A stretch of DNA of 64,000 bases. Source: an uncultured Gemmatimonadales bacterium. Its GTDB lineage: Bacteria; Gemmatimonadota; Gemmatimonadetes; Gemmatimonadales; GWC2-71-9. The notes below the pieces were generated by a model. It was not told the origin of the DNA. It was given only the letters and a program-made list of their open reading frames with translations, and searched no databases. Below are positions 46,268 through 64,000 of this stretch, one piece after another. Position 1 is the first letter of the stretch, and each line of letters starts with the position of its first letter. Location: the NCBI GenBank assembly GCA_963844035.1, contig CAWJMT010000035.1, positions 258,764 to 322,763 of the forward strand, in the 5' to 3' direction. Both the position numbers and the translations under genes were made by a program.

Positions 46268-47280
46268 GCGAGACGGTGGTCACGTTCTGCGTGGCCGTCG
46301 CCGAGACCGAACGCCTCGACCGCTTTCTCGCCGAGCAGCTGTCCCTCTCCCGTACGGTTGCCGCCCGTCTCATAGCCGACAAGCGCGTTTCCGCCGACGG
46401 GCGTCCGTTGCGCGCATCAGCGCAGCTGGCCCGGGCCACCGTCGTGTCCGTGTCGTTCCCTCCCACGGCAGAACCCCGCATGTACGCCCCGGCGGCGCGT
46501 GACCTCGCGTTCGTGTTCGAGGACGAGCACATGGCGGTGCTCGACAAGCCGGCCGGCCTCGTGGTCCATCCCGGCCCGGGGCACTGGGACGATTCCCTCG
46601 TCAACGTGCTGACGACTCGCGGCACCGCGCTGGCCCCGGGCGCGGAGCCCGGACGCCCCGGGATCGTGCACCGGCTCGACCGCGACACCTCGGGGCTGCT
46701 GCTGATCGCCAAGACCGATGAAGCGCACCGGCGCCTGGCCCGCGCGATCGAGCAACGCCGGGTGGAGCGCGTGTACGCGGCGGTCGCGTGGGGGCATCTG
46801 GCGAACAAACGCGTGACGATCGAAGCGCCTATCATGCGCAACCCCGCCGACCGGCAGCGGATGACGGTGAAGGCGGGCGGCCGGCATGCCGTCACCTACG
46901 CCGAGGTTGTCGCCCGGTTCGCCCATATCGACCTGTTGCGCGTGCGGCTGGGGACGGGGCGCACGCATCAGATCCGCGTTCACCTGGCCCATGTCGGCCA
47001 CCCGGTGGTGGGCGACCGGGAGTACGCCCTGGGAGGGAGCCGCCGGGTGACCCCGTCGATGCGCCGGGCGGCGGAGCGGATCGAGGAGCTCGCGCCCCGG
47101 CAGCTGTTGCATGCCGCCATGCTCACCTTGGAGCATCCCGTGACCGGCGCGCGCCTGGCGCTCACGTCCGAATGGCCCGTGGAATTGCTCCCGGCCCTGG
47201 CCGAAGGGGCCGAAGATCCCAATTTGCTTGCTCAGCGCAACCCCTTGCAGTATCTTGGCTTCTTCGCTTCTGATGGCTGA
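46264..47280 (+). CDS. rluD: RluA/RluD family 23S rRNA pseudouridine synthase
   Basis: S4-like RLDRFL, KPAGLVVHP, HRLDRDTSG, TGRTHQIRVH. Confidence 0.92.
   Translation: MSETVVTFCVAVAETERLDRFLAEQLSLSRTVAARLIADKRVSADGRPLRASAQLARATVVSVSFPPTAEPRMYAPAARDLAFVFEDEHMAVLDKPAGLVVHPGPGHWDDSLVNVLTTRGTALAPGAEPGRPGIVHRLDRDTSGLLLIAKTDEAHRRLARAIEQRRVERVYAAVAWGHLANKRVTIEAPIMRNPADRQRMTVKAGGRHAVTYAEVVARFAHIDLLRVRLGTGRTHQIRVHLAHVGHPVVGDREYALGGSRRVTPSMRRAAERIEELAPRQLLHAAMLTLEHPVTGARLALTSEWPVELLPALAEGAEDPNLLAQRNPLQYLGFFASDG
47228..47256 (+). promoter_or_regulatory. Putative sigma70 promoter of the che/mgl operon, inside the rluD 3' end
   Basis: TTGCTC-17 nt-TATCTT in a locally AT-rich patch, 16 nt before the cheW ATG. 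Confidence 0.55.
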
Positions 47281-47737
47281 CGGCGGGGTGGTCCGGCTGC
47301 TCGTGTTCCGCGTAGGCGCCCTCGCCTGTGCGGCCGCGGCGGAAACGGTGCGGGAGATCCTGCCGCGCCTGGCAACCACCAGAATTCCGGGTGCCCCGGT
47401 GGTCGTGGCTGGGGTGATCAACGTCCGCGGGAGCTTGGTGACGGTGGTGGAGGGATGGCGGGCGCTTGGCCAGCCGGCGCCGACCGGGGAGACGCCGGAA
47501 GGGGAAACGCCGCCCGGAACCACCGTGGTGCTGGAATTCGCGGGTGGTCGCAAGATCGCCGGCTTTACGGTGGATGAAGTGATCGACCTCCTTTCGGTAG
47601 GCGGCGAGACGCTGGAGCGCCGACAGGCGTTGCCCGGCATCGACCCGGCGCTGGTGCGGGCTGTGGGCCGCCGGAGCGGGCAGCTCTTCGTGGTCCTCGA
47701 TACTGACGCCCTGCTAACCCCAATTCTTGCTTCCTAG
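47273..47737 (+). CDS. cheW: Chemotaxis coupling protein CheW (1)
   Basis: VREIL..TRIPGAP..V.GVINVRG, GFTVDEV. Confidence 0.9.
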   Translation: MADGGVVRLLVFRVGALACAAAAETVREILPRLATTRIPGAPVVVAGVINVRGSLVTVVEGWRALGQPAPTGETPEGETPPGTTVVLEFAGGRKIAGFTVDEVIDLLSVGGETLERRQALPGIDPALVRAVGRRSGQLFVVLDTDALLTPILAS

Positions 47738-47746
47738 GGAGGAAGT

Positions 47747-48109
47747 GTGAACCACACCGTCCTCGTCTGCGATGACGCCATCTTCATGCGGACGATGATC
47801 AGCGACATCCTGACGCAGGCCGGCTTCGAGATCGTGGGCGAGGCTGAGACCGGCGCCCAGGCCGTTGAGAAATACAAGCTGCTCCGGCCCGATCTGGTCA
47901 CGATGGACATCGTGATGCCCGACATGGGCGGCATCGACGCGGTGCGGGAGATCGTGAAGGGCGATCCCAACGCCAAGGTGCTGATGTGCAGTGCCATGGG
48001 TCAGCAGGCCCTGGTGGTGGAGGCGATTCAGGCCGGCGCGAAGGACTTCGTAGTGAAGCCGTTCCAGCCCTCCCGCGTGCTCGAGGCCGTGCAGCGGGTT
48101 CTCGGTTAG
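47747..48109 (+). CDS. cheY: CheY response regulator, Bacillus CheY/DifD-like
   Basis: DDAIFMR, DLVTMDIVMP, MCSAMGQQ, AKDFVVKPF. Confidence 0.95.
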   Translation: MNHTVLVCDDAIFMRTMISDILTQAGFEIVGEAETGAQAVEKYKLLRPDLVTMDIVMPDMGGIDAVREIVKGDPNAKVLMCSAMGQQALVVEAIQAGAKDFVVKPFQPSRVLEAVQRVLG

Positions 48110-48110
48110 C

Positions 48111-50042
48111 ATGGATCTCTCGCAGTACGCCGAGCTGTTCCTCGCCGAATCCCGCGAGCACCTGAGCGCGTGCAACCATCTGCTCCTCGAGTGGGAGCGA
48201 GATCCGGCGGCGCGCGAGCCCGTGAGCGGCATCTTTCGCGCGGTGCACACGGTGAAAGGCATGGCGGCCACGATGGGGTACGCCCGCGTGGCCGATCTGG
48301 CGCACCGCGCGGAGAACCTGCTCGACGCCCTGCGCCGCAGCTCGACCGCCGTGACTGACGATCTGGTGCAGCTGATGTTCCGCACCGTGGACCTCCTGGA
48401 GCGATCGGTGGAGCTGTCCGTGGTGGGCCGCGAGGGCGAGCTGGATGTCGCCGCGGTCGCCGCGGAGCTGGAGCGGGCGAGCGCCGCCATGGCTCCCCGT
48501 GCCGCGCGCGCGACGCCGCCGCCGGCCGCCGCTGCCGTCTCCGCCACGCCCTCCACCACCTCCACATCCTCGACCCCCTCCACCGCGGCCACTCCTGCCG
48601 CGGTACCGGAAGAGGGTCGCCTGGTGCAGGTGACGTTGCGTCCCGATTCGCTGCTCAAGGGTGGGCGCGCGCTGATCGTGCTGCGCAAGGCGCAGGCGCT
48701 CGGCACCGTGCACGGAATCACGCCGCCCCCGACGGCATTCGAGTCCGAGGACTTCGACGGGCGCCTGGCCTTCCGGCTCGATTCGGCGGCAACGGTCGAC
48801 GCCATCGTCCAGGCGATCCAGGGCGCCGGCGATGTCGAAGCGGTCACGGTCGTGTCGGAGGCTCAGGAGGAGCTGCGGCCCGAGGGCGGCGCGGAAGGCG
48901 CCCGCACGCGGCATCTCCGCGTCGATCTGCGGCGGCTCGACACCTTGATGGATCTGATCGGCGAGCTCGTCATCGCACGGGGCCGGCTGAACGAGCTGGC
49001 CGCCCTGCGCCGCGATCCCGCGGTCGACGACATCGCGATCCATGTCTCCCGCCTGTCGATCGATTTGCAGGACGAGATCATCCAGGCGCGCATGACGCCG
49101 GTGTGGCAGGTGTTCGACCGGCTGCCGCGCCTGGTGCGCGACAGCGCGCGCGAGCTGGGCAAGCAGGTCGCGTTCCGGATCGAAGGGAAAGACATCGAGC
49201 TGGACCGCGCGATCCTGGACGAGCTGATGGATCCGCTCGTGCACCTGCTGCGCAACGCGGTGGATCACGGCCTCGAGTCGCCCGCGGAGCGCCGCAAGGC
49301 CGGGAAGCCGGTGGAGGGAGAAATCCTGCTCTCCGCGGTGCGCGAGCGCTCGAGCGTCACGATCACGATCACCGACAACGGGCGCGGCATCGATCGCGCG
49401 AAGGTACTCGCGCGCGCCAAGCGGGAGGGTCTGGTCGAGGCGCATGCCGACACGCTCACCGACGACCAGCTGCTGCGGATCCTGGCGCGCCCCGGGTTCA
49501 CCACCGCCGAGGCGGTGACCACGGTGTCGGGCCGGGGCGTGGGGATCGACGTCGTGACCACGCGGCTGCGGGCGCTCGGCGGCTCGATCGAAGTACGCTC
49601 GGAGCCGGGCAAGAGCACGAGCTTCGTGCTGCGGCTGCCGGTGACGCTCGCGATCGTTCGCGCGCTGATCGCCAGCGTGGGCCGCGAGCGCTACGCGCTC
49701 CCGCTCACGTACGTGTCGGAGACGGTAGAGTTCGGTGACGAGCCGACGACGATGATCGAGGGGCGGGAGGCGATCGTGCTGCGCGACCGGGTCGTGCCGC
49801 TGGTCCATCTGCGCGCCCTGCTCGGCGTCCACGGCGACGCACCGCCGCCGCGCCGGCCCATCATCGTGCTCGAGATGGGCGATCGCCGTGCCGGTCTCGT
49901 GGTGGACGGCATGCTCGGCCAGCGGGAGATCGTGGTGAAGAGTTTCGACGCGCCGCGCGGCACGCTGCCGCTGTTCAGCGGGGCGACGATCATGGGCGAC
50001 GGAGTCCCGGCGTTGATTCTGGACGCCGGCGGAATCGTGTAA
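48111..50042 (+). CDS. cheA: Chemotaxis histidine kinase CheA
   Basis: Hpt FRAVHTVKGMA, P2-like domain, LDTLMDLIGELVI, HLLRNAVDHG, SGRGVGIDVV, C-terminal CheW domain. Confidence 0.97.
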   Translation: MDLSQYAELFLAESREHLSACNHLLLEWERDPAAREPVSGIFRAVHTVKGMAATMGYARVADLAHRAENLLDALRRSSTAVTDDLVQLMFRTVDLLERSVELSVVGREGELDVAAVAAELERASAAMAPRAARATPPPAAAAVSATPSTTSTSSTPSTAATPAAVPEEGRLVQVTLRPDSLLKGGRALIVLRKAQALGTVHGITPPPTAFESEDFDGRLAFRLDSAATVDAIVQAIQGAGDVEAVTVVSEAQEELRPEGGAEGARTRHLRVDLRRLDTLMDLIGELVIARGRLNELAALRRDPAVDDIAIHVSRLSIDLQDEIIQARMTPVWQVFDRLPRLVRDSARELGKQVAFRIEGKDIELDRAILDELMDPLVHLLRNAVDHGLESPAERRKAGKPVEGEILLSAVRERSSVTITITDNGRGIDRAKVLARAKREGLVEAHADTLTDDQLLRILARPGFTTAEAVTTVSGRGVGIDVVTTRLRALGGSIEVRSEPGKSTSFVLRLPVTLAIVRALIASVGRERYALPLTYVSETVEFGDEPTTMIEGREAIVLRDRVVPLVHLRALLGVHGDAPPPRRPIIVLEMGDRRAGLVVDGMLGQREIVVKSFDAPRGTLPLFSGATIMGDGVPALILDAGGIV

Positions 50043-50053
50043 GGGGAGGACAG

Positions 50054-50671
<618 letters not shown>

Positions 50672-50674
50672 GCC

Positions 50675-53368
50675 GTGACGGCGCCGGCGCCCTCGGAACG
50701 CGACCTCGCCGTCCTCCGATCCTTCGCCCGCCGGATCGATGTATCCGATGCGGGCGCCCACAACAATCTCGGCGTGGTCTACTATCGCAAGGGTCTGATC
50801 GAGGAAGCGATCGCGGAGTTCACGCGCGCCCTCGAGCTCGACCCCAAGATGCAGGTCGCGCAGCGCAACCTCGAAATCGCCTACCACAACACCGGGTTCT
50901 ACGACCGGCGCGTGGCCGAGCTGCAGGAACGCCTGCGCCAGGCGCCGGACGAGCGCGAGGCGCGCTGGGAGCTGGGCCGTGCGTACGCGGTGCTCGGGCA
51001 GGACCAGGAGGCGATCGCCGAGTTCGAGGAGCTGCTCGCCAAGAAGCCCGACGACATCGGGGCGATCATCCAGCTCGGGCTCGCCGAGAAGAATCGCGGC
51101 CGTCTGGACGTGGCGACCGAGTGGTTTCTCCGTGCCTGCGAGCGTGATCCCTCGAGCAGCGTGGCCCAGTTCTATCTCGCCGAGGTCTACTACAACCGGG
51201 GCCTGAACGCCGACGCGCTGGCGGCGCTGGACCGGGCGATCTCGCTCAACCCCGACAACGCGAACGCGCACTACCTCATGGCGTTCGTGCTGGGCGACAT
51301 GGGCCGCCACCAGGACGCGCGGGCCGCGTCCAAGCGCGCGATTCAGCTCAACCCGCCGCTGGCGCGCGCCCAAACCAACCTCTCGCTCGAGCGCTACACC
51401 GCCGAGCACAAAGCCCGCGAGCTGCGGGCGCGCGACGCCCCCGAGCCGACCATCATCGAGGGCAACGCGCTCGCGCACTACAACCTCGGGCTGGCCTTCC
51501 GCCAGAAGGGCTACTACAACGAGGCGCTGCACGAATACCGCCTCGCCCTGGAGCGCGGGGAGGACCGCAAGCTCGCGTTGCAGGCGATGGCCGAGGTGCA
51601 CTTGCTCAAGCGCGACCTCCCGGCGGCGCGCGAGCTGTACGAGACGCTGCTGCGCGAGTCGCCCGAGTCGCCCAAGCTGTGGAACGAGCGGGGCGTGGTG
51701 CTGCAGCAGGGCGGCCAGGCGGACGAGGCCCTCGCGTCGTACCAGCAGGCGGTGCAGGTGGACCCCAAGTACGGCCTGGCGTGGAACAACCTCGGCGTGC
51801 TGCTGGCCCACCGCGGCGAGACGGAGCAGGGGATCGACGCGTTCCGGACGGCGCTGCAGTGCCAGAGCACGCTCAGCGCCGCGCGCTTGAACCTCGCCCT
51901 GCTGCTGTTTCAGCTGCGGCGCTTTCAGCTGTCGCTCGAAGCCTACCGCCAGGTGCTCACCAATGAGCCGAACTCCGCCGCCACCTGGAACGGCATCGGT
52001 CTCGTGCTCGTCGAGCTGAAGCGCTTCACCGACGCGCGCAACGCGTTCGTGCGGGCGATCGAAGGCGACGCCGAGCACGCGGGGGCGCATTACAACCTCA
52101 GCTTCACGCTCTCGAACCTGGGCGACTACGACGGCGCGCTGCGGGCCACCAAGCGCGCCCTGGAAATCGACCCCTACTACGTCTCGCAGAAGTTCGCGCT
52201 CACGATCGACCTGCAGTTCGAGAAGGGGACGATCGGCGTCGCTCCGGAAATCTCGGCGGACGTGCTGGCGGAGACCTTAGGCGAGACGTTCTCCTTCGAT
52301 CAGCGTCTGCTCGACAACATCTTCCAGGAGCTTGCCCCGCCGGCCGCCGCGGCGAAGGACACCGCCCAGCGCGTGGAGGACCCGCTCGCGCTCGCCCGCG
52401 ACTATCTGAGCAAGGGGCTGATGGAAAACGCCTCCTCGGAAGCGGCGCGGGCGGTGCAACGCGGTGCCGATCGGGGAGATGCCGCGGTGCTATTGGGCGA
52501 CATCTTCGCCCGGCGCGGCCTGCACGGCGAGGCGCTGGAGCGGTTTCGCGAGGCGCGGGCGCTCGACGCCGCCCGGCCCGACGCGCTGCTCGGGGAAGTG
52601 CGCGCGCTGCTCGCGCTCGACCGGCTCGACGAGGGGGCCGCCCTGGCGGAGCAGCTCCTGGGGCTCACCCCCGACGACGTCGAGGCGCTGGTTGCGGTGG
52701 CCAAGTGCCGCGCGGCGGCCGGCGATGCCGGGGGCGCGCTGACGGTGCTGAAGCAGGCACAGACGCGCGCGCCCGCCCGGGCCGATCTCCGGAAGCTCGA
52801 GGGCGACGTGGCGCTCAAGGTCGGGGATCCGGGCAGCGCGCGCACCGCGTACCGCTCGGCGCTGGAGCTCGACCCGGGATACGTCCAGGTGTGGCTCGAG
52901 CTGGGCCGGCTGCACGAGCTGAAGGAAGAGTGGGGTCCGGCCGAGCAGGCCTACGAGCAGGCGCTCGAAAAGCTCCCGAGTTTCTACGAGGCGGCGCTCG
53001 CGCTCGCCGACCTGCTGCGCCGCGTGGGGCGCGTGCGCCATGCCGTCACCCGGCTGGCGACGATGTTGGAGCAGGATCCCTACGATCTCAAAGCCCTGCT
53101 GCTGCTGGGCCGGGCACTGCTCGACGACAAACGCGACGCGGCGGCCCTGGAGGCGTTCCGGCGCGCCCTCCGGTTCGACCCCGAGCTGGTGGAAGCGCTG
53201 TTCCAGCTCGGCGTCGCGCTCGCCCGCGTGCACCGCTACGGCGACGCGGTGGAGGCGTGGGAGCGGGTCACCCGCCTCGATCCGTCGGGACCGTTCGCGC
53301 AGCGCGCCCGGATTCACGCGCGCACGGCGCTCGATCTGCAGCACATCTTCACCTCCGACGCGGCCTGA
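50675..53368 (+). CDS. Large cytoplasmic tetratricopeptide-repeat protein (897 aa)
   Basis: Many AHNNLG/AHYNLG..A..LDP repeats; no signal peptide. Confidence 0.9.
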   Translation: MTAPAPSERDLAVLRSFARRIDVSDAGAHNNLGVVYYRKGLIEEAIAEFTRALELDPKMQVAQRNLEIAYHNTGFYDRRVAELQERLRQAPDEREARWELGRAYAVLGQDQEAIAEFEELLAKKPDDIGAIIQLGLAEKNRGRLDVATEWFLRACERDPSSSVAQFYLAEVYYNRGLNADALAALDRAISLNPDNANAHYLMAFVLGDMGRHQDARAASKRAIQLNPPLARAQTNLSLERYTAEHKARELRARDAPEPTIIEGNALAHYNLGLAFRQKGYYNEALHEYRLALERGEDRKLALQAMAEVHLLKRDLPAARELYETLLRESPESPKLWNERGVVLQQGGQADEALASYQQAVQVDPKYGLAWNNLGVLLAHRGETEQGIDAFRTALQCQSTLSAARLNLALLLFQLRRFQLSLEAYRQVLTNEPNSAATWNGIGLVLVELKRFTDARNAFVRAIEGDAEHAGAHYNLSFTLSNLGDYDGALRATKRALEIDPYYVSQKFALTIDLQFEKGTIGVAPEISADVLAETLGETFSFDQRLLDNIFQELAPPAAAAKDTAQRVEDPLALARDYLSKGLMENASSEAARAVQRGADRGDAAVLLGDIFARRGLHGEALERFREARALDAARPDALLGEVRALLALDRLDEGAALAEQLLGLTPDDVEALVAVAKCRAAAGDAGGALTVLKQAQTRAPARADLRKLEGDVALKVGDPGSARTAYRSALELDPGYVQVWLELGRLHELKEEWGPAEQAYEQALEKLPSFYEAALALADLLRRVGRVRHAVTRLATMLEQDPYDLKALLLLGRALLDDKRDAAALEAFRRALRFDPELVEALFQLGVALARVHRYGDAVEAWERVTRLDPSGPFAQRARIHARTALDLQHIFTSDAA

Positions 53369-53371
53369 TCC

Positions 53372-54523
53372 ATGGCAATTGAAGGCCCGCTTCGGGAACT
53401 CGGCATCCACGATGTGTTCCAGCTCCTCGACCTGAGCCGGAAGACGGGCGTGCTGCGTGTCACGTCGGATCTGCGGCACAACGCGGGGACCGTGCACTTC
53501 GAGGCGGGCACGATCGTGTTCGCCGAGATTCGCAGCAATCCCCACCCGCTCGGGGCGCTGCTGCTGCGCACCGGAAAAGTGACCGAAGCCGATCTCGAGC
53601 GCGCGCGCGACATGCAGACGCGCCAGGGAGATCCGCGCCGGCTGGGCCAGATCCTGGTCGATCTCGGAGCGATCTCGGCGCGCGAGCTCGAGCGCCAGAT
53701 GCGGTTCCAGATCGAGGAAGTCGTGTTCGAGATGATGAGCTGGCACGAAGGATTCTTTTCCTTCGGCGAGGAGACCGTGGCCGTTCCGGCGGACGCCGTG
53801 CGGATTCGCACCGAGGCGATCCTCATGGAGGGCGCGCGGCGCATCGACGAGTGGTCCCGCATCGAGAAGCGGATTCCGCACCTCGGCGTGGTGCCGCAGC
53901 TGGCGCCGCCGCGCGACGGGGACGCGGGCCAGGTCGATCTGCTCCCGGCGGAGTGGGAGCTGCTCGCGCTGTTTGACGGCGAGCGCGACGTGCGGACCCT
54001 CGCGGGGGAGCTGGGGCGCTCGGACTTCGAGGTCGCGAAGACGCTGTTCGGCCTGGAAAGCGCGGGCGTGATCATGCTGGTCGATCAGGGGCCCGCCAAG
54101 GGCGAGCGCGTGACGACGGCGGCGCAGCTCGCGGAGCTGGTCGCCCGCGCCGAGGACGCGCTCGCCGGCAAGGACCTGGGGCGCGCGCGCGCCGAAGCGG
54201 AGCAGGCCGCCGGCCTGTTCCCGCACGACGCCACGGTGCACCTGCTGCTCGGCCGCATCCAGCTCGCCGCCGCCCGCCCGAGCGACGCCGCCGACGAGCT
54301 GCGGCGCGCGCTCCACCTCGACCCGCTGCTGGTCCCGGCGCATCGGATCCTCGGGTACGCCCTCGTGGCGTCGGGTCGGTTCGCGGAGGCGGTCGAGCAG
54401 TGGGAGCACTGGGAGCGGCTCGCGTCCCGCTCGGATGCGGAGACCGCGCAGCTCGAGCAGGTGCGGCGCGCCAAGCTGGCGGCGCAGACGCTGCTGGGCG
54501 CCGGAGTGCCGAGCCATGGCTGA
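53372..54523 (+). CDS. DUF4388 (PatA-N-like) + MshEN-like + TPR protein
   Basis: MAIEGPLRELGIHDVFQLL..RKTG.L N-terminus; RLGQILVDLG repeat; LMEGARRIDEW; C-terminal TPRs. Confidence 0.85.
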   Translation: MAIEGPLRELGIHDVFQLLDLSRKTGVLRVTSDLRHNAGTVHFEAGTIVFAEIRSNPHPLGALLLRTGKVTEADLERARDMQTRQGDPRRLGQILVDLGAISARELERQMRFQIEEVVFEMMSWHEGFFSFGEETVAVPADAVRIRTEAILMEGARRIDEWSRIEKRIPHLGVVPQLAPPRDGDAGQVDLLPAEWELLALFDGERDVRTLAGELGRSDFEVAKTLFGLESAGVIMLVDQGPAKGERVTTAAQLAELVARAEDALAGKDLGRARAEAEQAAGLFPHDATVHLLLGRIQLAAARPSDAADELRRALHLDPLLVPAHRILGYALVASGRFAEAVEQWEHWERLASRSDAETAQLEQVRRAKLAAQTLLGAGVPSHG

Positions 54524-55352
54524 CGACATCAAGTCGCTCTCGGCCCAGCTCGCGCAGGACCCCACCAGCATGGTGTTCCTGCGGTTGGCGGAGCTGTTGC
54601 GCCAGCGCGGGCAGCTCGACGCCGCGCACCGCGTGGCGGTGGGCGGGCTGGAGCGGCACCCGCACATGGCCGACGCGCACGACCTGTTCGCGCGCATCCT
54701 CGCCGACAAGGGCGACTTCGAGCGCGCCTTCGACGAATGGGACATGGCGGTGCGGATCGCCCCGGGCCATACCGGGGCGCTCAAGGGGCTCGCGTTTCTG
54801 TACTTCAAGGTGGGCGACGTGGATCAGGCGGTGGCGCACCTCGAGTCGGCGCGGCGGCACAGTCCCGACGACCCGAGCATCGATCAGGCGCTCGCGGTGG
54901 TGCGGGGCGGCGGGCCCGCGAAGGCGGCGCCCGGCCCCGCCGCGGCGTCGCGCGAGCCGGCGGCAACCGCCGCCACCGCGGCCCCGCTCGAGGACGCGCG
55001 GGTATTCGCCGGCCTCGAAGGCGCGCAGGAGGGGCTGCTGTTGCTCGACGCCGCGGGGCGGGTGCTGGGGGGCGCGCTGCGGAATCCCGCCGGTGACGAC
55101 GTGACCGACGCGGTGGCCGCGTATCTCGCCGGCGTGTCGCAGGAAGCGGCGCGCACCGCCAAGCTGCTGGGGCTCGGGACGTGGACGGGACTCGCGACCG
55201 AAGGGGGCCAGGGTCACGTGCACCTCGCCCAGCCTACTCCCGACGCGCTGCTCCTCGTGGTGCGGGATCGCGCCACGCCGATGGGACGGCTCGCCATCGT
55301 GGCGCAGCGGGCGGCGCACGCGGCCCGCCGCTGGCTGGAGCAGCAGGGATGA
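54516..55352 (+). CDS. TPR + C-terminal roadblock/LC7-like domain protein
   Basis: DPTSMVFLRLAE N-terminal TPRs, Ala/Pro linker, then LLLLDAAGRVL..AAYLAG..LG.W....E...LLLVV..GRL roadblock-like fold. Confidence 0.7.
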   Translation: MADDIKSLSAQLAQDPTSMVFLRLAELLRQRGQLDAAHRVAVGGLERHPHMADAHDLFARILADKGDFERAFDEWDMAVRIAPGHTGALKGLAFLYFKVGDVDQAVAHLESARRHSPDDPSIDQALAVVRGGGPAKAAPGPAAASREPAATAATAAPLEDARVFAGLEGAQEGLLLLDAAGRVLGGALRNPAGDDVTDAVAAYLAGVSQEAARTAKLLGLGTWTGLATEGGQGHVHLAQPTPDALLLVVRDRATPMGRLAIVAQRAAHAARRWLEQQG

Positions 55353-55702: not shown

Positions 55703-56169
55703 GCACGCGCGCCGTCGAAACCTGGACACTCGACCCGTTGAAACACTTCGTGAGCGAGGCGAGCGCCCGTCTGGTGCTGCTGATGACGCCGGCGGGGCAG
55801 GTGATGGCCCAGCACGGGTTCTCGCGCGCGGTGGACGTGATGTCGGCGGCGGCACTCGGGGCGGCGATCATGGCGTCGACGGCGGAGATCGCGCGCCAGC
55901 TGGCGCAGCCGCCGTTCGCGGCGCTCACCCACCAGGGCGATCGCCACGGCATCTTTCTCGGCGCCGTGCCCACGAACCGCGGGACGATCGTCGCGCTGGT
56001 CGTGTTCGATCTCGACGCTTCGTCCGCCGGGCTGGTGCAGCTATTCTTTGAGCAACTCGGCGCCGAGCTCAAGGCCGCGAGCCCCAAGGAGGGCGTGCCC
56101 AAGCAGGTGCTCGCCGCCGACTTCGAGCGCGAGCTGAGCGACAGTCTCAACACGCTGTTCGGGAGATAG
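55699..56169 (+). CDS. mglB: MglB-like roadblock protein (putative MglA GAP)
   Basis: LLMTPAGQV.AQHG..AALGAA..AST...A.....F..L.HQG...VVFD..SS.GLV and C-terminal helix DSLNTLFG; directly upstream of mglA. Confidence 0.8.
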   Translation: MSTRAVETWTLDPLKHFVSEASARLVLLMTPAGQVMAQHGFSRAVDVMSAAALGAAIMASTAEIARQLAQPPFAALTHQGDRHGIFLGAVPTNRGTIVALVVFDLDASSAGLVQLFFEQLGAELKAASPKEGVPKQVLAADFERELSDSLNTLFGR

Positions 56170-56172
56170 CCC

Positions 56173-56772
56173 GTGTCCCTGGTGAACTTCACGACGCGCG
56201 AGATCACCTGCAAGATCGTGTACTACGGTCCCGGGCGGTCGGGGAAGACGACGAACCTGCACTACATCTACGGCCGCGTGCCGGATCAGCGGCGCGGGCG
56301 CATGGTGTCGCTCGCGACCCAAACCGACCGTACGCTGTTCTTCGACTTCCTGCCGATCGATCTCGGACAAATCTCCGGCTTCTCGACGCGCTTCCAGCTG
56401 TACACGGTGCCCGGCCAGGTCTACTACAACGCGACCCGCCGGCTGGTGCTCCAGGGCGCCGACGGCGTGGTGTTCGTGGCCGACAGCCAGGCGCGGCAGC
56501 TCGACGAGAATATCGAGAGCCTGCAGAACCTCCAGAGCAACCTGCTCGAGATGGGCGTGGATATCCGCACGCTGCCGGTGGTGATGCAGTACAACAAGCA
56601 GGACCTGCCCCGCGAGCTGATTCTCCAGACCGCGGACCTGGACGACTCGCTCAATTTCCGCAGCATCCCGAGCTTCGGCGCCGACGCGCTGCATGGCCGC
56701 GGCGTGTTCGAAACCCTCAAGGGGATCTCCGAGCAGGTGCTCAAGAAGCTCTCGGCGGGGAGCACGGTGTGA
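56173..56772 (+). CDS. mglA: MglA small Ras-like GTPase
   Basis: KIVYYGPGRSGKTTNL, TDRTLFFDFLP (intrinsic Arg finger), LYTVPGQV, QYNKQDL. Confidence 0.96.
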   Translation: MSLVNFTTREITCKIVYYGPGRSGKTTNLHYIYGRVPDQRRGRMVSLATQTDRTLFFDFLPIDLGQISGFSTRFQLYTVPGQVYYNATRRLVLQGADGVVFVADSQARQLDENIESLQNLQSNLLEMGVDIRTLPVVMQYNKQDLPRELILQTADLDDSLNFRSIPSFGADALHGRGVFETLKGISEQVLKKLSAGSTV

Positions 56773-58730
56773 CCGCAGCGCTCAACGCCAAGTTTTCGTT
56801 CGAGACATTCGTGGTCGGCGCGGCCAACCGCCTGGCGGTCACCGCCGGCCGCACGGTTGCCGAGAACCCCGCGTCCGCCTACAACCCGCTGTTCATCTAT
56901 AGTGGGTCGGGGCTTGGCAAGACGCACCTGCTGATGGCGGTGGGCCAGGCGGCGCTCAAGCTCTCGCCCACCCTCAATATCGAGTACCTGACCCTGGACG
57001 AGTACGTCGAGTCGTTCCACGCCGCCGTGGCCGCGGGGCAGGGCGATGCGTTCCGGCGCCGGTTCCAGAACGTCGACGTGTTGATGATCGACGACGTGCA
57101 GTTCCTGACCAATCGCAAGGAGATGCAGGCCGAGCTGCTGCGGCTCACCGAAGCGCTGCAGGGGGCGGGGCATCAGGTCGTGCTCACGAGCGACCGCCCG
57201 CCGGCCGAGATTGCGGATCTGGACGAACGGTTGATCTCGCGGTTCTCGGGGGGTCTCGTCGTGGACATCGGGGCGCCCGACTACGAGACGCGCGTGGCGA
57301 TTCTGCGGCGCAAGGCGGACGAGCGCGGCGCGAAATTCCAGCCGGGCGTGATGGAGCTGGTCGCGGGCGCGGAGTTCCAGAACGTGCGCGAGTTGATGGG
57401 CGCGCTGAACCGGCTGGTGGCCTATCAGGCCGTGAACGAGTCGCCCTTGAACGTCGAAGGCGCGAAGCATCTGCTCGGCCTTTCGTTTCCCGCCACTGCG
57501 GCCGGATCGCCGCCGGCGACGGCGGGGGGGAGGGGGAGGGGGAGGGGGGATGAATTCGGCGCGTTCCTGCAGGACGTGACCGCCACGGTTGGCAAGGCGG
57601 TGGAGGCGTGGCGCGCGCGCGTCGGGGAAGCGGTGATGCGGTGGGACGGGGAGGGATACCGCACACGCCGGCTGGAGGCGCTGCTCGAGCAGGAAACCCC
57701 GGCGGCGGTCGACGAGGTGATCGCTCAGTTTGGGGTGGATGTCGAGCGGTTGAAGGAGCTCGAGGCGCAGGTCGCGGCACTCGACCCGCAGGCCGCCGGG
57801 CATGCGATGTTCCGCGACCCGGAGCGTCTGGCCGAGGCGGAGGCGGCGGCGGCCACCGTTCAGGCGGGTGCGGCGCCGCCCCCCGAACCCTCGAAGGCGT
57901 TTCCCCTGGCGGCGTTCGCGGTGGGGCCCTCGAACCAGGTGGCCGTGAGCGCGGTGCACGCGGTGCTCAAGCAGCCCGGGAAGAAGTACAACCCGCTGGT
58001 GCTCACCGGGAAGAGCGGGCTCGGCAAAACGCACCTCTTGAACGCGATCGGACTCGAGCTCGCGAAGGCGCGGCGGGCCGTCGTGGCGTGCCTGTCCACG
58101 CAAGCCTTCATCGACGAGCTCATCGCGGCGATTGACGGCGACCGCGTGGATTGGTGGCGTGCGCGGTACCGCCGCTGCACCGCGTTGCTGCTCGACGACA
58201 TTCACCTCATCGCGGGCAAGGATCGCACGCAGGAAGAGCTGTTCAACCTCTTCAACCTGCTGCACGATGGCGAGCGCCAGCTGGTGTTCACGGCCCCGGC
58301 CCATCCCAATACGCTGGTCGGCGTGGAAGAGCGCATCGGATCGCGGCTCGAGGGCGGGCTGGTGGTGGAGCTGGGGGAGCCCGACCGCGACGTGCGGCGC
58401 GCGGTGCTCAATCGTCTGTTCGCGCAGCATGAAGCCGAGCCCGACCCCGCGCTGCGGGACTACCTGGCCGACCGGCCGGCGGATTCGGTCCGTACCCTGA
58501 TCGGGGTTGTGCAGCGGGTGACGAGCGCCGCGGCGGCGCAGGAGCAGGCGCTCACCGTTGGCCTGGCGCGCGAAGTCCTCGAAGGCCAGCCTGCCGCCTC
58601 CGGGCGTCCCACGGGCCCGTTCCGCACCAGCGGCCTGATCGTGTCGAGCCTGGGCGGCATCCGCAGCCGCGAAAAGATGGCGTGGGACTGGCCCGACCCC
58701 GCGGACCGCATGATCGAGGATCTGCGCTGA
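56769..58730 (+). CDS. Protein with two tandem DnaA/Hda-type AAA+ modules, no DNA-binding domain IV
   Basis: Module 1: FETFVVGAANRLA..YNPLFIYSGSGLGKTHL..MIDDVQF..RLISRF..NVRELMGAL. Module 2: FAVGPSNQVA..YNPLVLTGKSGLGKTHL..LLDDIHL..RIGSRLEGG..SVRTLIG. Confidence 0.9.
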   Translation: MTAALNAKFSFETFVVGAANRLAVTAGRTVAENPASAYNPLFIYSGSGLGKTHLLMAVGQAALKLSPTLNIEYLTLDEYVESFHAAVAAGQGDAFRRRFQNVDVLMIDDVQFLTNRKEMQAELLRLTEALQGAGHQVVLTSDRPPAEIADLDERLISRFSGGLVVDIGAPDYETRVAILRRKADERGAKFQPGVMELVAGAEFQNVRELMGALNRLVAYQAVNESPLNVEGAKHLLGLSFPATAAGSPPATAGGRGRGRGDEFGAFLQDVTATVGKAVEAWRARVGEAVMRWDGEGYRTRRLEALLEQETPAAVDEVIAQFGVDVERLKELEAQVAALDPQAAGHAMFRDPERLAEAEAAAATVQAGAAPPPEPSKAFPLAAFAVGPSNQVAVSAVHAVLKQPGKKYNPLVLTGKSGLGKTHLLNAIGLELAKARRAVVACLSTQAFIDELIAAIDGDRVDWWRARYRRCTALLLDDIHLIAGKDRTQEELFNLFNLLHDGERQLVFTAPAHPNTLVGVEERIGSRLEGGLVVELGEPDRDVRRAVLNRLFAQHEAEPDPALRDYLADRPADSVRTLIGVVQRVTSAAAAQEQALTVGLAREVLEGQPAASGRPTGPFRTSGLIVSSLGGIRSREKMAWDWPDPADRMIEDLR

Positions 58731-60346
58731 TGGCGATCAAAGGCTCACTCAAGGAAGCGTCGCTCCCCGATGTGCTGCAGCTGCTGGCGCTGGGGCAGAA
58801 GACCGGGTGCCTGTCGATCGCCGACCGCTCGAACTTCGGCTACATCTACTTCGAGAAGGGCCGCATCTCGTACGCGTCGATCGTCAACCGGCGCGACCGG
58901 CTGGGGGAGATCCTGTCGAAGCACGGCCGCATCACCGCGGAGCAGCTCGACGCGGCGGTGCACCGGCAGGGCAAGGACCGCGACAAGAAGCTCGGCCAGA
59001 TCCTCGTGGCCCAGGAGGTCATCACGCAGCAGGACCTCGAGCGCTACATGCGCGTGCAGATCGAGGAGTCGGTCTACTACCTGTTCACCTGGACGCAAGG
59101 CTCGTTCAACTTCGAGGCCGACGTGCGGCCCGACCGCCAGGATTTTCTCGTCTCGATCAATCCCGAGTCGCTGCTGCTCGAGGGCGCGCGGCGCGTGGAC
59201 GAATGGAGCCTGATCGAGAAGAAGATTCCCAGCTTCGACCTGATCTTCGTCGTGGACCGCGACCGGCTGGCGATCTCGGAGGCGAAGCTCAACGACGCGC
59301 AGCAGCGCATCCTCCCGCTGCTCGACGGCACGCGCGACGTGAACCAGGTGATCGAAGACTCCGGGCTCGGAGAGTTCGAGATCGGCAAGGCGCTGTACGG
59401 GCTGCTCACCGCCGGCTACCTGCATCGCTCGGGCAAGACCGCGTCGACCGTCGACACCCACGTGACCGACGCCCGCATCGAGGAGCACCGCAACCTGGGC
59501 GTCGCGTTCTACAAGACCGGGATGCTGGATGAGGCCGCGCGCGAGTTCCGGCGGGTGGTGGACCTGCGACCCGCCGAAGCGAGCGCGCACTTTTTCCTCG
59601 GCCTGGTCGCCCTGCGCCAGGCCCGCTGGCGTGAGGCCGTCGACATGCTGCGGCTCGCCGCCGAGCGCGGCGGCAACCAGCCCGCGGTGCTGCACAACCT
59701 GGGGCTGGCGTACGAGCTGGTGGGGCGGCTCCCCGAGGCGGAAGCGGCGTACGCCGAAGCGGCGACGCGCGCCAAGACCGACGGCCGCATCTATCTCGGC
59801 TGGGGCATCGTGACGCTCAAGCAGGGCGATTTTGCGAGCGCCGCCGGCCGGCTCGATCGCGCCAAGGAGCTGTTCGGCAAGATCCCGCCCGCCACGTGGT
59901 TCTGGGCGCGCACCCTCGCGGCCGCGTCGGCGGGCGACTTCGAGCTGGCGGAGCAGCTCGCCGAGGAAGGCGCGGAAGCGTATCCCTCCCACGCCGTGTT
60001 GCAGAACAATCTCGCCGTGTTGAAGGAGCTCGCCGGCGATCTCGCCATGGCGGAGGAGCTGATCCGCGGCGCCCGCAAGAACGAGCCCTCGATGCCGCAG
60101 TTGTCCAAGAATCTCGGCGACCTCGCCTACCGGGCGTCGCGCTACGACGAGGCGTGGGACGTGTACAACCGCGCCGTCGAGCTGGCGCCCAACCTGGGCG
60201 ACGACGTGTACTTCAAACTCGGGAACATCGCCTACAAGCGAAACGACCGTGAGCTGGCGGCCCAGCTGTGGCGCAAGGCGCTCGAGCTGAATCCCAAGCA
60301 CGAGCTCGTCCGGGCCAACCTGGATACGCTGAGTGCATTGTCGTGA
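58730..60346 (+). CDS. DUF4388 (PatA-N-like) + MshEN-like + TPR protein (2)
   Basis: MAIKGSLKEASLPDVLQLL..QKTG.L; RLGEIL..G.I....L......Q repeat; LLEGARRVDEW; multiple C-terminal TPRs. Confidence 0.87.
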   Translation: MAIKGSLKEASLPDVLQLLALGQKTGCLSIADRSNFGYIYFEKGRISYASIVNRRDRLGEILSKHGRITAEQLDAAVHRQGKDRDKKLGQILVAQEVITQQDLERYMRVQIEESVYYLFTWTQGSFNFEADVRPDRQDFLVSINPESLLLEGARRVDEWSLIEKKIPSFDLIFVVDRDRLAISEAKLNDAQQRILPLLDGTRDVNQVIEDSGLGEFEIGKALYGLLTAGYLHRSGKTASTVDTHVTDARIEEHRNLGVAFYKTGMLDEAAREFRRVVDLRPAEASAHFFLGLVALRQARWREAVDMLRLAAERGGNQPAVLHNLGLAYELVGRLPEAEAAYAEAATRAKTDGRIYLGWGIVTLKQGDFASAAGRLDRAKELFGKIPPATWFWARTLAAASAGDFELAEQLAEEGAEAYPSHAVLQNNLAVLKELAGDLAMAEELIRGARKNEPSMPQLSKNLGDLAYRASRYDEAWDVYNRAVELAPNLGDDVYFKLGNIAYKRNDRELAAQLWRKALELNPKHELVRANLDTLSALS

Positions 60347-61173
60347 CGGGCGAACCGGATGAGCGCGCGCTGAAGGCGCTCACCGAGAAGATTTCCCAGG
60401 CTCGCGGGGTGTGCTGCGGTGCGTACAAGGACCGCTGTTTGCGGCGGCGCCTGGCGGTGCGCATGCGGGCGCGGGGCGTGCATACGTACGAGGCCTACAG
60501 CGAGGTGCTCGACGCCGACGCCGCCGAGTACGACCGCCTGCTCGACACCCTCACGATCAACGTCACGAAGTTCTGGCGCAACGCCGAAACGTGGCAGGCG
60601 CTCGCGCCCTACCTGGTGGAGTTGTGGCGCGCCCGGAACGGACACATGCGCGTCTGGTCGGCCGGGTGCGCCTCGGGCGAAGAGCCCTACACGCTCGCGG
60701 TCGCGCTCGCGGAAACCGCGCGCAGCCTGCGCGAGAACGAATGGCTGGCGCGCGTCCGCATCGACGCGACCGACGTGGATCGGGAGAGCCTGGAGCGGAC
60801 CAAGCTGGGAGAGTTCCCCGCCAGCACGTTCAGCGAGATGCCGGTGGAGCTGGCGCAGCGATATTTCACCGCCGTCGGCACCGCCGGGGCCACCCGCCGG
60901 CCGCTGCCGGCTCTGCAGCAGATTGTGAAGGTGCGCCGCCACGACCTGACGCGCGAGCCGCCTCCCGACCCGCCCTACGACATGATCGTGTGCCGCAACG
61001 TGGTCATCTACTTCGACCGTCCCATGCAGGAGCGCCTGTTCCAGACCTTCGTGGAGGCGATCGTGCCGGGCGGCATCCTCCTGCTCGGCAAGGTCGAGAC
61101 CCTGGTCGGGCCCGCGCGCGAGCGCCTCAAGCTCGAAGACCCGCGCGAGCGGATCTACCGCCGGCCCGCATGA
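60343..61173 (+). CDS. cheR: Chemotaxis methyltransferase CheR
   Basis: LTINVTKFWRN, WSAGCASGEEPYT, ATDVD, CRNVVIYF. Confidence 0.95.
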   Translation: MTGEPDERALKALTEKISQARGVCCGAYKDRCLRRRLAVRMRARGVHTYEAYSEVLDADAAEYDRLLDTLTINVTKFWRNAETWQALAPYLVELWRARNGHMRVWSAGCASGEEPYTLAVALAETARSLRENEWLARVRIDATDVDRESLERTKLGEFPASTFSEMPVELAQRYFTAVGTAGATRRPLPALQQIVKVRRHDLTREPPPDPPYDMIVCRNVVIYFDRPMQERLFQTFVEAIVPGGILLLGKVETLVGPARERLKLEDPRERIYRRPA

Positions 61174-61667
61174 CTTCACCGGTCCCCAAGGAAACGATCG
61201 TGCGGGTGGCGGATTGGGCCGCGCGGCGCGGCGACGAAGCGCTCGTGACGCTGGGCCTGGGGTCGTGCGTCGCCATTATGTTGCATGACCCCAAAGCGTG
61301 GGCGGGCGCGATGGCGCACGTTCTGCTCCCCTCCCAGAGTCTCGCCCGGGACACAACCAACCCCGCGAAGTTTCCGGAGACTGCGGTCCCGTTCCTCGTC
61401 AAACAGCTCGAGGCGCTGGGCGCCGATCCGCGCCGCATCGTGGCCAAGCTCGCCGGTGGGGCGAGCATGTTCGCGCAGCTCATGACGCCCGGGTCGATAC
61501 AGATGGGGGAGCGCAACCTGGTCGCGACCCGCAAGGCCCTGCGTGCGGCCTCGATCCCGCTCGCGGCGGAAGCGGTGGGGGGTGAGGCCGGCCGCTCGGT
61601 GCGTTTTTTCGTCGCCGACGGCCGGGTCGAAATCCGCTCCGTGGGAGTCAATGTCGTCTGCATCTGA
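61170..61667 (+). CDS. cheD: Chemoreceptor glutamine deamidase CheD
   Basis: [33 protein letters not shown]. Confidence 0.93.
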
Positions 61668-62745
61668 CGCGCGTCCCAGCGTGCTGATCGTGGACGACAG
61701 CGCGCTGATGCGCCGCGTGCTGTCGGACATCTTGGGCGGGTCGGGGGGGCAACCCGGGGAGTTCCGGGTGGTGGCGGCGGCGCGCGACGGCTTCGATGCG
61801 CTCCGCAAAGTGCACCAATTCGAGCCGGACGTCATCACCATGGATCTCGAGATGCCGGAGCTCGACGGCCTCGGCGCGATCGGGTACATCATGTCCGAGA
61901 CGCCGCGGCCGATCGTGGTGGTGAGTGCGCACGTGGGCCCCGGTACCGCCGCGGTGATTCGCGCGCTCGAGCTCGGGGCGGTGGAGATCGTCACCAAGCC
62001 GGAGGAGGCGACCCGGACGGCGCTGGAGCGGCTGGGGCCGCAGCTCATCGGAGCGGTGCGCCGCGCGCTCGCGGCCGACGTGTCGCGCGTTCCGGTGATG
62101 GCGCGCCCGCCGGCGCCCGTGCGGCACGCGCTCGAAACCGGCCTGCGGCCCCGCGCCCGCGTCGTGGCGGCGATCGCATCGTCGACCGGGGGACCCCGCG
62201 CGCTCGCGGAGGTGGTGCCGCGCATCCCTACGGGCCGTCACGCCGTCCTCATCGTGCAGCACATGCCGCCCAAGTTCACGCGCTCCCTGGCGGAGCGGCT
62301 CGACTCGATGAGCCCGTTGCACGTGGTCGAGGCCGATCACGGCGCGCCGGTGGTCGAGGGCACAGCGTACGTGGCCCCGGGCGATTATCATATGCGGGTG
62401 ACAGCCGCGCCCGACGGTCCGCAGATCACGCTCGACCAGGGGCCGCCCATCTGGGGCGTGCGTCCGGCCGCCGACCCGACGTTCCGCTCCGTCGCCACGC
62501 TGTTCGGCGCACGCAGTCTGGGGGTCGTGCTCACCGGCATGGGACGGGACGGCGCCGAGGGGCTGCGTGCAATTCACGACGCCGGCGGCAGCGGCTTCGC
62601 CCAGGACCGTGAAACGTCGATCATCGCCGGCATGCCCACGGCGGCGGTGCAGGCCGGGGGCGTGGACGCGGTGCTGCCCCTCGGACAGATCGCCGATCGC
62701 ATTGCGTCGGAGCTGTTGCGCCGCGACCCGGTGGCGCGCCCGTGA
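61651..62745 (+). CDS. cheB: Chemotaxis methylesterase CheB (receiver + esterase)
   Basis: [34 protein letters not shown]. Confidence 0.96.
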
Positions 62746-63155
62746 GCCGCGGCTACCTGCTGGTGCAGGTGGAGGGCGCGAGCTACGGACTGCCGCTCGA
62801 GCCCGTCCTGCAGGTGGACGACATCGGCGAGGTGTTGGAGGTGCCGACCGTCCTGCCCGCGATGCGCGGGCTCACGCCGCTCAACGGACGGCTGGTGCCG
62901 CTGATCCACCTGGGCGCGCTGCTCGGCAATCGCGAGCCGCCCACCCGGCGCGGGGCGGCCACCGTACTCGTGGGCCTGGGAGGCCGCACCCGTCTCGTGG
63001 CCCTCGAGGTCGACGATGCCGACGAGGTCGTGCGCGAGCCGGTGCTGCCCGCGCCTCCCGGCGAAACCTTGCCCTGGGCGTCCGGGGTGGCGCGACGTGA
63101 GGGGACCCTGGTGCCGATCCTGGACTGGAACGTTTTGGAGGAACGCATCAAGTGA
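62742..63155 (+). CDS. cheW: CheW-like protein (2)
   Basis: [10 protein letters not shown]....MRGL....[17 protein letters not shown]. Confidence 0.8.
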
Positions 63156-63628
63156 CCACAGGGGACGACGTCCAGCTCGTCGCCTTCCGGCTGGCCGGCC
63201 AGGAATTCGCCTTCAACATCTTTCAGGTGGAACGGATTCTCCGGCACGAAGCTGCATCCCCGCTCCCCAAGGCACCGGATTTCCTCGAAGGCGTGCTGCA
63301 GTATCAGGGCGGCGCCGTCCCGCTCATCGATCTGCGCAAGCGCCTCAGCGTGGCCGCGCCGGTCAAGGAGGAAACCCGTACGGTGATCCTCGAGTCGGAG
63401 GGTGCGAAGATCGGGGTGATCGTGGATGCGGTCACCGAGGTACTCCAGGTCGCGGCCTCCGAGATCACGCCGCCTTCCAAGATGGTCAAAGGACTGGCGG
63501 CAGAGTACATCAGCGGGCTGGTGGTGAAGGACGGGCGCACGATCATCGTGCTCAACACCGGTCAGCTCCTGAACGCCAAGGAGAAAATGGCGCTCGAGGC
63601 AGTGCTCCCCAAGGCCAAGGCGTCGTGA
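63152..63628 (+). CDS. cheW: CheW (3)
   Basis: QLVAFRLAGQEFA..VERI..LPKAPDFLEGV..VPLIDLRKRL..GVIVDAVTEV. Confidence 0.92.
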   Translation: MTTGDDVQLVAFRLAGQEFAFNIFQVERILRHEAASPLPKAPDFLEGVLQYQGGAVPLIDLRKRLSVAAPVKEETRTVILESEGAKIGVIVDAVTEVLQVAASEITPPSKMVKGLAAEYISGLVVKDGRTIIVLNTGQLLNAKEKMALEAVLPKAKAS

Positions 63629-64000
63629 GCGAGTCCCCGATTGGGGCCCTGCGGGGCGAGTACGACGCCATCGCCCGCCGGCTCGACAGCGCGCCCGCCG
63701 GACGCCGAGCGCGACGTCGTCAAGCGCGACATCATCGGCTACTTCAAGCAGGTGGACACACTCATCACCGAGCTGATGGAGCTGAAGGAGGACGTCCGCA
63801 AGCTCGTCGAGCGCTACAAGCAGCTCGCGGCGTCCACGGCGGAGGCCTCGGCGCCGGAGTTCACCAGCGCTCGTCCGGCAATTCACGCCGACCACATCGG
63901 CGCCTCGACCTTCATCGAGAAGGGCTGGAGCCTCATCTCGCTCGGCGATCACGCCGGCGCGGTGCAGGCGTTGCAGAAGGCGCTGAAGCTGTCGCCCGGC
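63625..64000 (+). CDS. Coiled-coil + TPR protein, partial (runs off right edge; indel near 63700)
   Basis: GTG overlaps the cheW stop. Reads ..VVKRDIIGYFKQVDTLITELMELKEDVRKLVERYKQL..FIEKGWSLISLGDHAGAVQALQKALKLSPG. Confidence 0.7.
   Translation, partial: MSESPIGALRGEYDAIARRLDSAPAGRRARRRQARHHRLLQAGGHTHHRADGAEGGRPQARRALQAARGVHGGGLGAGVHQRSSGNSRRPHRRLDLHREGLEPHLARRSRRRGAGVAEGAEAVAR

Follow-up and report, generated by a model that had tools for sequence, protein, structure and literature searches.

A conserved, apparently undescribed gene cluster of Gemmatimonadales joining chemosensory, MglA and PATAN proteins with a tandem DnaA-type ATPase

In Myxococcus xanthus the Frz chemosensory system acts through MglA/MglB (with RomR-RomX, RomY and MglC) and then SgmX on the type IVa pili. 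A run of 18 genes in the last quarter or so of a 64,000-nucleotide stretch of contig CAWJMT010000035.1 (contig C35; the whole stretch is called the window here), from an uncultured bacterium of the Gemmatimonadales, invites comparison with that circuit, since a chemosensory system, a Group 1 MglA with roadblock proteins, a large tetratricopeptide repeat (TPR) protein and type IVa pili are common to both. The mglA gene of Myxococcus lies away from the genes of these partners (PMC4316618), whereas here they share an operon, and the Frz kinase lacks P2 and carries a receiver (PMC3945109), whereas the CheA of the operon has P2, has no receiver and is accompanied by CheC and CheD. Further, the TPR protein of the operon is not SgmX, its MglA is a second paralogue, and its PATAN-MshEN adaptors and tandem ATPase have no Frz-Mgl counterpart in the portions of the literature cited. 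Because kinase class, MglA/MglB orthology and SgmX all fail, the cluster is not a member of the Myxococcus Frz-Mgl module, and by analogy it may work like a chemosensory-to-MglA-to-pilus circuit without belonging to it.

Three other described systems share parts with the locus. The M. xanthus Dif and Geobacter Dif-like systems have the same component set (44H receptors, CheW, CheY, CheA with P2, CheC and CheD), the same receptor length class and a non-flagellar role, and the cheW-cheY-cheA-cheC order of the operon matches difC-D-E-G. Unlike Dif, the operon encodes no receptor in the place of DifA, has three CheW proteins with CheR, CheB and CheD, and holds a GTPase-PATAN-ATPase block in its interior. 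The cyanobacterial PatA-type (PATAN-REC) regulators of PilB1/PilC have the same PATAN domain with an alpha-clip/MshEN insert and are encoded in chemosensory clusters. In the operon the PATAN-MshEN unit is fused to TPRs and not, as in PatA, to a receiver, so that a CheY signal must arrive in trans. In archaea an F1 chemotaxis system has been rewired to a non-flagellar motor, the archaellum, by the adaptor CheF (PMC13747009); no CheF match was found among the 18 locus proteins.

The open reading frame listing together with Pfam and NCBIfam scans places the 18 co-directional genes on the forward strand from 47273 to the end of the window, which coincides with the end of contig C35 and cuts the last gene. 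All 17 junctions measure between −17 and +11 nt. The initial annotation had claimed at least 17 such genes, overlapping or a few nucleotides apart and in the order below, and this is confirmed; its two che halves also stand, and its count of seven non-che genes between them becomes eight when the second DUF4388-TPR gene is included. Pfam matches were obtained for 17 of the 18 proteins, the exception being the cut one, whose relatives are coiled-coil plus TPR proteins. The features are as follows.

47228..47256, + strand: likely internal sigma-70-type promoter, TTGCTC-17 nt-TATCTT, within the 3' end of rluD
47273..47737, + strand: CheW-1 (PF01584); its start overlaps the rluD stop by 8 nt
47747..48109, + strand: CheY of F1 (Thermotoga/Bacillus) type (PF00072; best PDB match 1tmy, 178 bits)
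48111..50042, + strand: CheA with Hpt, P2, dimerisation, kinase and CheW domains
50054..50671, + strand: CheC phosphatase with two ExxN sites (PF04509 and motifs; NF041093 below cut-off)
50675..53368, + strand: 897-aa all-TPR protein, a candidate scaffold (Pfam; weak match to the SgmX model)
53372..54523, + strand: PATAN (DUF4388) protein a, PATAN-a, with MshEN-type insert and TPRs (PF14332; NF053729 at 41.8 bits, cut-off 38)
54516..55352, + strand: TPR-roadblock fusion (TPR and PF03259)
55349..55702, + strand: Roadblock/LC7 protein (PF03259)
55699..56169, + strand: divergent MglB-like roadblock protein (34 bits to M. xanthus MglB structures)
56173..56772, + strand: Group 1 MglA paralogue (246 bits to M. 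xanthus MglA; G1, Arg finger, TVPGQ and NKxD intact)
56769..58730, + strand: tandem DnaA-type AAA+ protein, 653 aa, with two domain-III modules, a helical linker, no domain IV and a C-terminal E..W tail
58730..60346, + strand: PATAN (DUF4388) protein b, PATAN-b, with MshEN motif pair and TPRs (NF053729 at 45.4 bits)
60343..61173, + strand: CheR (PF01739, PF03705)
61170..61667, + strand: CheD (PF03975)
61651..62745, + strand: CheB with receiver domain (PF01339, PF00072; NF001965 over cut-off)
62742..63155, + strand: CheW-2 (PF01584)
63152..63628, + strand: CheW-3 (PF01584)
63625..64000, + strand: protein with coiled coil and TPRs, truncated at the contig end (relatives have about 285 aa)

Conservation was followed in 150 other genomes of the phylum (coded here by G-numbers, with f-numbers for families and g-numbers for genera). 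Both cheC and an mglA of the operon type are present in 91 of these, and in 82 of the 91 the two lie on one strand 4.5-6.3 kb apart, with a stable interleaved che/Mgl order across six families; in the other nine they sit on different contigs. PATAN-b is found in 106 of the 150 genomes, including 101 of 105 from the same order, and was not found in families f6 and f9-f12 of this sample. The loci of 47 relatives were fetched, many because they looked deviant, and so no frequencies are to be read from them. None of the 47 is rearranged, the differences being deletions, contig ends or genes too diverged to detect, and the whole gene set is present in 13 (one starting inside cheY). In the gene-neighbourhood check that the initial annotation called for, the locus is thus conserved and colinear across the order. 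The site of the cluster lies between rluD on one side and tRNA-Val, a TPR gene, tRNA-Asp and the rsmH-dcw cluster on the other; five further genomes lack PATAN-b and have remnants or nothing after rluD, and rsmH comes within about 5 kb in four of them.

An ATPase search covering 66 loci returned 61 that are, bar one, labelled Gemmatimonadales or Gemmatimonadota, and five plain DnaA proteins from other phyla; searches for relatives beyond the phylum gave Gemmatimonadota, plain DnaA or close PATAN-b relatives only, and a PATAN-b feature search gave only leads scoring under 0.9, in Acidobacteriota and Myxococcota. The host organism is a member of the Gemmatimonadales. No functional description of the locus was found in the full-text literature, a body outside which most subscription papers fall, and to that extent the initial view of the locus as undescribed is upheld. 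The nearest entry is in Wuichet and Sogaard-Andersen 2015 (PMC4316618), where Group 1 MglA genes are noted as sometimes near PATAN genes and where the Table S2 row for GAU_1409 (Gemmatimonas aurantiaca) reads 'PATAN>MglA>-PATAN>'. Going by gene pattern, that row is probably a roadblock-less form of this locus; it mentions no che genes, ATPase or function. The cluster is a real, conserved and apparently undescribed signalling system.

The defining parts of the F1 chemosensory class are a CheA with P2, CheC, CheD, CheR and CheB, with no CheZ, and the operon, with a P2-bearing CheA, CheC, CheD, CheR and CheB, agrees with the class in its components. Its CheY, CheA, CheC and CheD are closest to Thermotoga, archaeal and Bacillales proteins, and the best full-length CheA matches in a plasmid collection are Bacillales CheA. 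Apart from a second-strain copy the operon is the only CheA locus of this genome, as this CheA system is in most sampled Gemmatimonadales. The six chemoreceptors are all encoded on other contigs. One aligns, 298 to 298 residues, with PDB 2ch7, a Thermotoga receptor of the 44H class, and the C-terminal arms measure 156-171 residues in four of the six (one of the others is broken and one mis-indexed), so the receptors appear to be 44H. By eye, the receptors at C12:104610-106688 and C1:59457-61688 have a multi-pass membrane N-terminus followed by a GAF-like domain, and that at C25:15123-16817 adjoins a periplasmic binding protein gene. With the receptors and the pilus motor genes encoded elsewhere, the earlier claim of a complete input-to-polarity pathway in a single locus falls.

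The likeness of CheY, CheA, CheC and CheD to flagellar proteins of Thermotoga and Bacillus could mean an ordinary F1 flagellar chemotaxis operon with passenger genes. Flagellin was not found in this genome (84% complete), nor in 78 of the 106 PATAN-b carriers, nor in 62 of the 82 genomes with co-located cheC and mglA, so that the survey of the rest of the genome agrees with the non-flagellar system first proposed. A further CheA is encoded in 18 of the 27 flagellated carriers that have this one, in several cases no more than about 7 kb from flagellin, and all 11 flagellated genomes of family f10 do without the locus. In the remaining nine flagellated carriers no other CheA was found, and there CheY may also serve flagella. 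For this genome the flagellar explanation is largely refuted, and overall we regard it as very unlikely indeed. Two non-flagellated relatives have a second cheA with a distant cheC (G016:C10:31519-37833 and G066:C18:3638-9969).

The presence of the genes varies, and the manner of loss bears on which of them work together. The che genes of both halves have been cleanly deleted from G125, G128, G163 and G109; G063 has lost the right half, and its genome yielded neither cheC nor CheA. Chemoreceptors were not found in four of these five. Partial che loss is seen in G086, G059, G115 and genus g27, and a tree of rluD, lspA, dksA and PATAN-b from 43 loci puts the che losses on several separate branches. 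The G086 locus (L114) looks like a deletion in progress, with cheA gone and fragments of cheC, cheR, cheB and cheW flanking an intact Mgl block. Where che genes have been lost the 18th gene remains beside the Mgl block. Conversely, G088 and G090 keep cheW-cheY-cheA-cheC, cheR, cheB and PATAN-b and have cleanly lost the block from the TPR gene to the ATPase. The three roadblock genes are missing together in five genomes that keep MglA; two of these, from the g52 group, were examined and show greater divergence in MglA, the TPR protein and PATAN-a, the last now without an MshEN insert. In genus g27 (L096, L102, L115-L117) MglA is only 39-45% identical, and the two sequences viewed no longer have the Arg finger and TVPGQ motifs; these loci have a shortened TPR protein and no cheR-D-B-W-W, and they keep the roadblocks, the ATPase and PATAN-b.

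These patterns make the TPR protein, PATAN-a, the roadblocks and MglA one sub-module and the che genes another, and the obligate coupling of che and Mgl implied by the initial annotation does not survive them, given that some lineages drop all che genes and keep the Mgl block and one does the reverse. It may then be asked whether two functionally separate modules merely share one promoter, the che genes having an output of their own and the MglA-PATAN-ATPase genes another, interleaved by history and only co-regulated. Clean che loss in four genomes, with the right half gone also in G063 and with receptors missing from four of the five, and clean loss of the Mgl block in G088 and G090 are what such an arrangement would give. 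Yet PATAN-b is retained in both kinds of deletion and is the gene most often kept, the interleaved order holds across six families, CheY is 78-93% identical across the class without flagella, and one tandem ATPase is fused to a receiver; for these reasons we consider separate modules unlikely. The loss pattern instead points to PATAN-b as a common output of the two halves and a candidate hub.

The PATAN proteins are also what connects the locus to pili. Both carry an MshEN-type insert above the NF053729 cut-off and resembling the N-terminus of the genome's own PilB. The MshEN motif binds c-di-GMP and consists of two 24-residue RLGxx(L/V/I)(L/V/I)xxG(L/V/I)(L/V/I)xxxxLxxxLxxQ stretches with a 5-residue spacer (PMC5013675). 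The motif pair is present in both adaptors, in PATAN-b as RLG in the first and KLG in the second, in PATAN-a the reverse (the first lacking the Arg), and the full 24-residue pattern occurs in 33 of 47 PATAN-b sequences. Judged from these motifs PATAN-a and PATAN-b are likely c-di-GMP-sensing adaptors, and near-full GGDEF domains number at least 10 in this genome. The TPRs of PATAN-b span residues 245-538, and a fold search with it returned generic TPR structures only. PilB, PilT, PilC and PilM with their neighbours are encoded in this genome outside the locus. PilM is present in 103 of the 106 PATAN-b carriers, a co-occurrence that does not discriminate, as most genomes without the locus have PilM too, and the assignment to pili therefore draws on what is known of the families, namely PATAN, MglA with TPR proteins and MshEN. 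PATAN domains bind PilB1 and PilC in Synechocystis (bioRxiv 10.1101/2021.06.11.447907), and M. xanthus MglA acts on pili via the TPR protein SgmX (PMC11580455). On this footing regulation of type IV pili is the leading reading of the cluster, at about even odds, in keeping with the field of function proposed in the initial annotation.

Pili could also be the input and not the target, in a Dif-like surface-sensing pathway that controls exopolysaccharide, adhesion or the c-di-GMP level. The F1-type CheA with P2, CheC, CheD and the Thermotoga-length receptors match the Dif and Geobacter Dif-like list with its 44H receptors (PMC2577667, PMC3945109, PMC5544727), M. xanthus PilB signals upstream of Dif (PMC5544727), and MshEN domains occur on glycosyltransferases too (PMC5013675). 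Such a pathway is nevertheless somewhat unlikely here, as the locus has no receptor, exopolysaccharide gene or cyclase, the portions of the papers cited give no MglA, PATAN or DnaA-like part for Dif, and the Mgl block persists without any che gene.

The relation of the operon MglA to the Myxococcus protein is that of a family member rather than an orthologue. Group 1 MglA proteins have an Arg next to the G2 Thr and TVPGQ at G3, with an MglB/roadblock gene within four genes (PMC4316618). In the operon MglA both TDRT and TVPGQ align with M. xanthus MglA, and three roadblock genes lie directly upstream, so that it agrees with Group 1 in sequence and in gene coupling. The genome has in addition a separate recR-mglB-mglA locus (C35:95156-96331), whose MglA scores 285 bits to M. 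xanthus MglA against 246 for the operon copy and whose MglB scores 115 bits to M. xanthus MglB against 34 for the operon MglB-like protein. By these bit scores the operon MglA and MglB-like protein are paralogues and the recR-linked pair is the likely orthologue of the Myxococcus pair, contrary to the earlier reading of the operon genes as a Myxococcus-type pair. The 897-aa TPR protein reaches 33.8 bits with the SgmX model, whose cut-off is 1800, SgmX having been assessed at the locus only. Neither RomR nor RomX is among the 18 locus proteins, the remaining genome not having been searched for them, and no match above cut-off to the gliding proteins GltG and GltJ was obtained in the genome, which is incomplete.

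The most original part of the cluster is the tandem ATPase derived from DnaA, together with the tether that is predicted to link it to a c-di-GMP-sensing PATAN adaptor. The operon ATPase shares its initiator-clade AAA+ fold and motifs with DnaA domain III and with Hda, and differs from them in being duplicated in tandem, in lacking domains I and IV, in its conserved tail and in its place within a signalling operon. Both of its domain-III modules have Walker A/B, Box VII Arg and sensor II in this genome, one or the other module being decayed in some relatives. Domain III has a TM score to target of 0.94 and 45% identity with B. subtilis DnaA, a fold search lists DnaA first and then p97-type proteins, no match to PF08299 (domain IV) or PF11638 (domain I) was found, and the TIGR00362 cut-off is exceeded only by summing two stretches. 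The true DnaA is encoded on contig C9 beside dnaN.

The tail of the ATPase (residues 614-653) is of low confidence and extended or disordered in the predicted model. Its last 20 or so residues hold an E..W motif with E635 and W641 invariant in an alignment of 49 sequences, from which nine mostly short or partial ones were left out, and sequences with one decayed AAA+ module still have the motif. In PATAN-b the final TPR repeats are present in all 40 loci that have the ATPase and absent from all six that do not, a co-loss that amounts to two events on the tree. Co-loss and conserved tail together suggest that the tail binds the last TPRs of PATAN-b. In addition, 17 long DnaA-like matches were scanned from the 150 best of a profile search. 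DnaA modules are joined to a PilB-type MshEN N-terminus in three of them, a tandem DnaA to a receiver in one and a DnaA module to TPRs in another, and these fusions show the same domain company (MshEN, TPR and receiver) as the operon ATPase. The non-initiator DnaA AAA+ fusions noted are P0191, P0199, P0268, P0236, P0230 and P0202, the PilB-type ones carrying one or two DnaA modules; one tandem DnaA among the fusion proteins keeps the DNA-binding domain.

A protein so close to DnaA might act in a cell-cycle or division-polarity circuit, co-assembling with DnaA or inactivating it as Hda does and so linking signals and polarity to replication or to asymmetric division. The closeness of domain III to B. 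subtilis DnaA, the largely kept Walker, arginine and sensor motifs, and the position of the cluster between divIVA-ileS and the rsmH-dcw cluster could be taken that way, and Gemmatimonas divides by budding. That position may be no more than an insertion site, domains I and IV are lacking, the ATPase is absent from six of the 47 loci and the whole cluster deleted in some near-complete genomes, and the linked partner and the fusions point to PATAN/MshEN pilus parts, all of which makes a cell-cycle role distinctly unlikely.

Returning to regulation of pili, a working scheme can be put together from these parts. Receptors encoded elsewhere would set CheA activity and the level of CheY-P, with CheR, CheB, CheD and CheC adapting the signal; these components are seen, and their wiring would be that of F1 systems. 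Positional information would come from MglA and its roadblock proteins together with the 897-aa TPR protein and PATAN-a, a role suggested by Myxococcus for components whose catalytic motifs are in place. PATAN-b would contact PilB/PilC via its PATAN domain and sense c-di-GMP via its MshEN insert, as cyanobacterial PATAN and Vibrio MshEN domains do, and the C-terminal tail of the tandem ATPase would bind the last PATAN-b TPRs, so that the ATPase could act at the pole as an ATP-gated oligomer or remodeller. The che input would be optional, several lineages apparently running the module without it. The fullest form of this scheme, in which the AAA+ module of DnaA, stripped of the DNA-binding domain, has taken on a new role at the pole as an ATP-gated polymer or remodeller bound to a c-di-GMP-sensing PATAN adaptor, and is the effector by which the F1 pathway and the second MglA steer type IV pili, is possible and is offered tentatively.

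Several observations weigh against regulation of pili. The locus itself contains no pilus gene, and PilM is present in 142 of 151 genomes of the phylum, including most of those without the locus. The polarity switch proper may be the canonical mglBA pair. The independent loss of che and Mgl halves fits co-regulation as well as a shared pathway, and in a relative-rate test the TPR protein is relaxed after che loss in one lineage (46-47% identity versus 56-59%) but not in another (56%). Besides the five genomes that keep MglA with no roadblock genes, five keep the roadblocks with a diverged MglA; nine of the 27 flagellated carriers have, as far as was found, this CheA alone; and the DnaA fusions are single proteins.

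Gemmatimonadales are common and among the dominant soil bacterial orders, and since most of those sampled have this as their sole CheA system yet mostly no flagellin, the question arises of what their core sensory output is. The locus gives a short list of candidate links, with natural deletions that show how the parts depend on one another, and it gives, for comparison with Myxococcus, a second case in which chemosensory control and an MglA switch stand side by side, here with linked genes. It also allows the idea of a DnaA-type ATPase that works away from replication to be put to the test; the label of replication initiator that members of this family often receive in annotations is misleading. 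If true, the scheme would give the DnaA fold a non-replicative job and CheY a route to pili independent of Pil-Chp and Frz.

Transcription of the cluster may begin inside rluD. The element at 47228-47256, with 7 of 12 consensus matches, was not listed by a consensus scanner, and the conclusion first drawn from that scan, that no promoter precedes cheW, was withdrawn after a conservation test of the rluD tail. There GC3 falls from 0.88 to 0.61, and 18 of 43 relatives have the pattern TTG-N3-N16..18-TA-N3-T in the final 99 nt of rluD, the spacer being 17 nt each time, against 0.5 matches (sd 0.7) predicted by synonymous recoding and 0-1 in ten other gene tails taken as a control; the pattern was fixed after viewing the alignment and the relatives are not independent. 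The element is retained in lineages that lost the che genes. It is probably a real promoter, judged by this conservation, and the promoter-like element placed ahead of the operon by the initial annotation is to that degree corroborated. No gap separates the cluster from the upstream ileS-dksA-lspA-rluD genes, and read-through into it is therefore possible. In four soil or rhizosphere metatranscriptome runs 6-11% of words matched; the contigs are short and come from relatives, a few span gene junctions, and they cannot show a single transcript or a start site.

The reading frames of the operon are intact, unlike ileS (42159-45318), tilS (34300-35685) and valS (7952-10157) in the same window, which look split across frames, as indel errors of long reads would make them. 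The operon occurs once more on contig C3. This copy was considered as a paralogue and rejected: the 32-kb stretch that contains it matches C35 at 86% identity, with 565 gap openings and with frameshifts, and is most likely from a second strain. The assembly bin thus mixes strains and copy counts from this genome are unreliable. The matching segments are C3:22407-54154 with window positions 32417-64000 (86% identical), and contig C28 with window positions 26330-35626 (92-95%).

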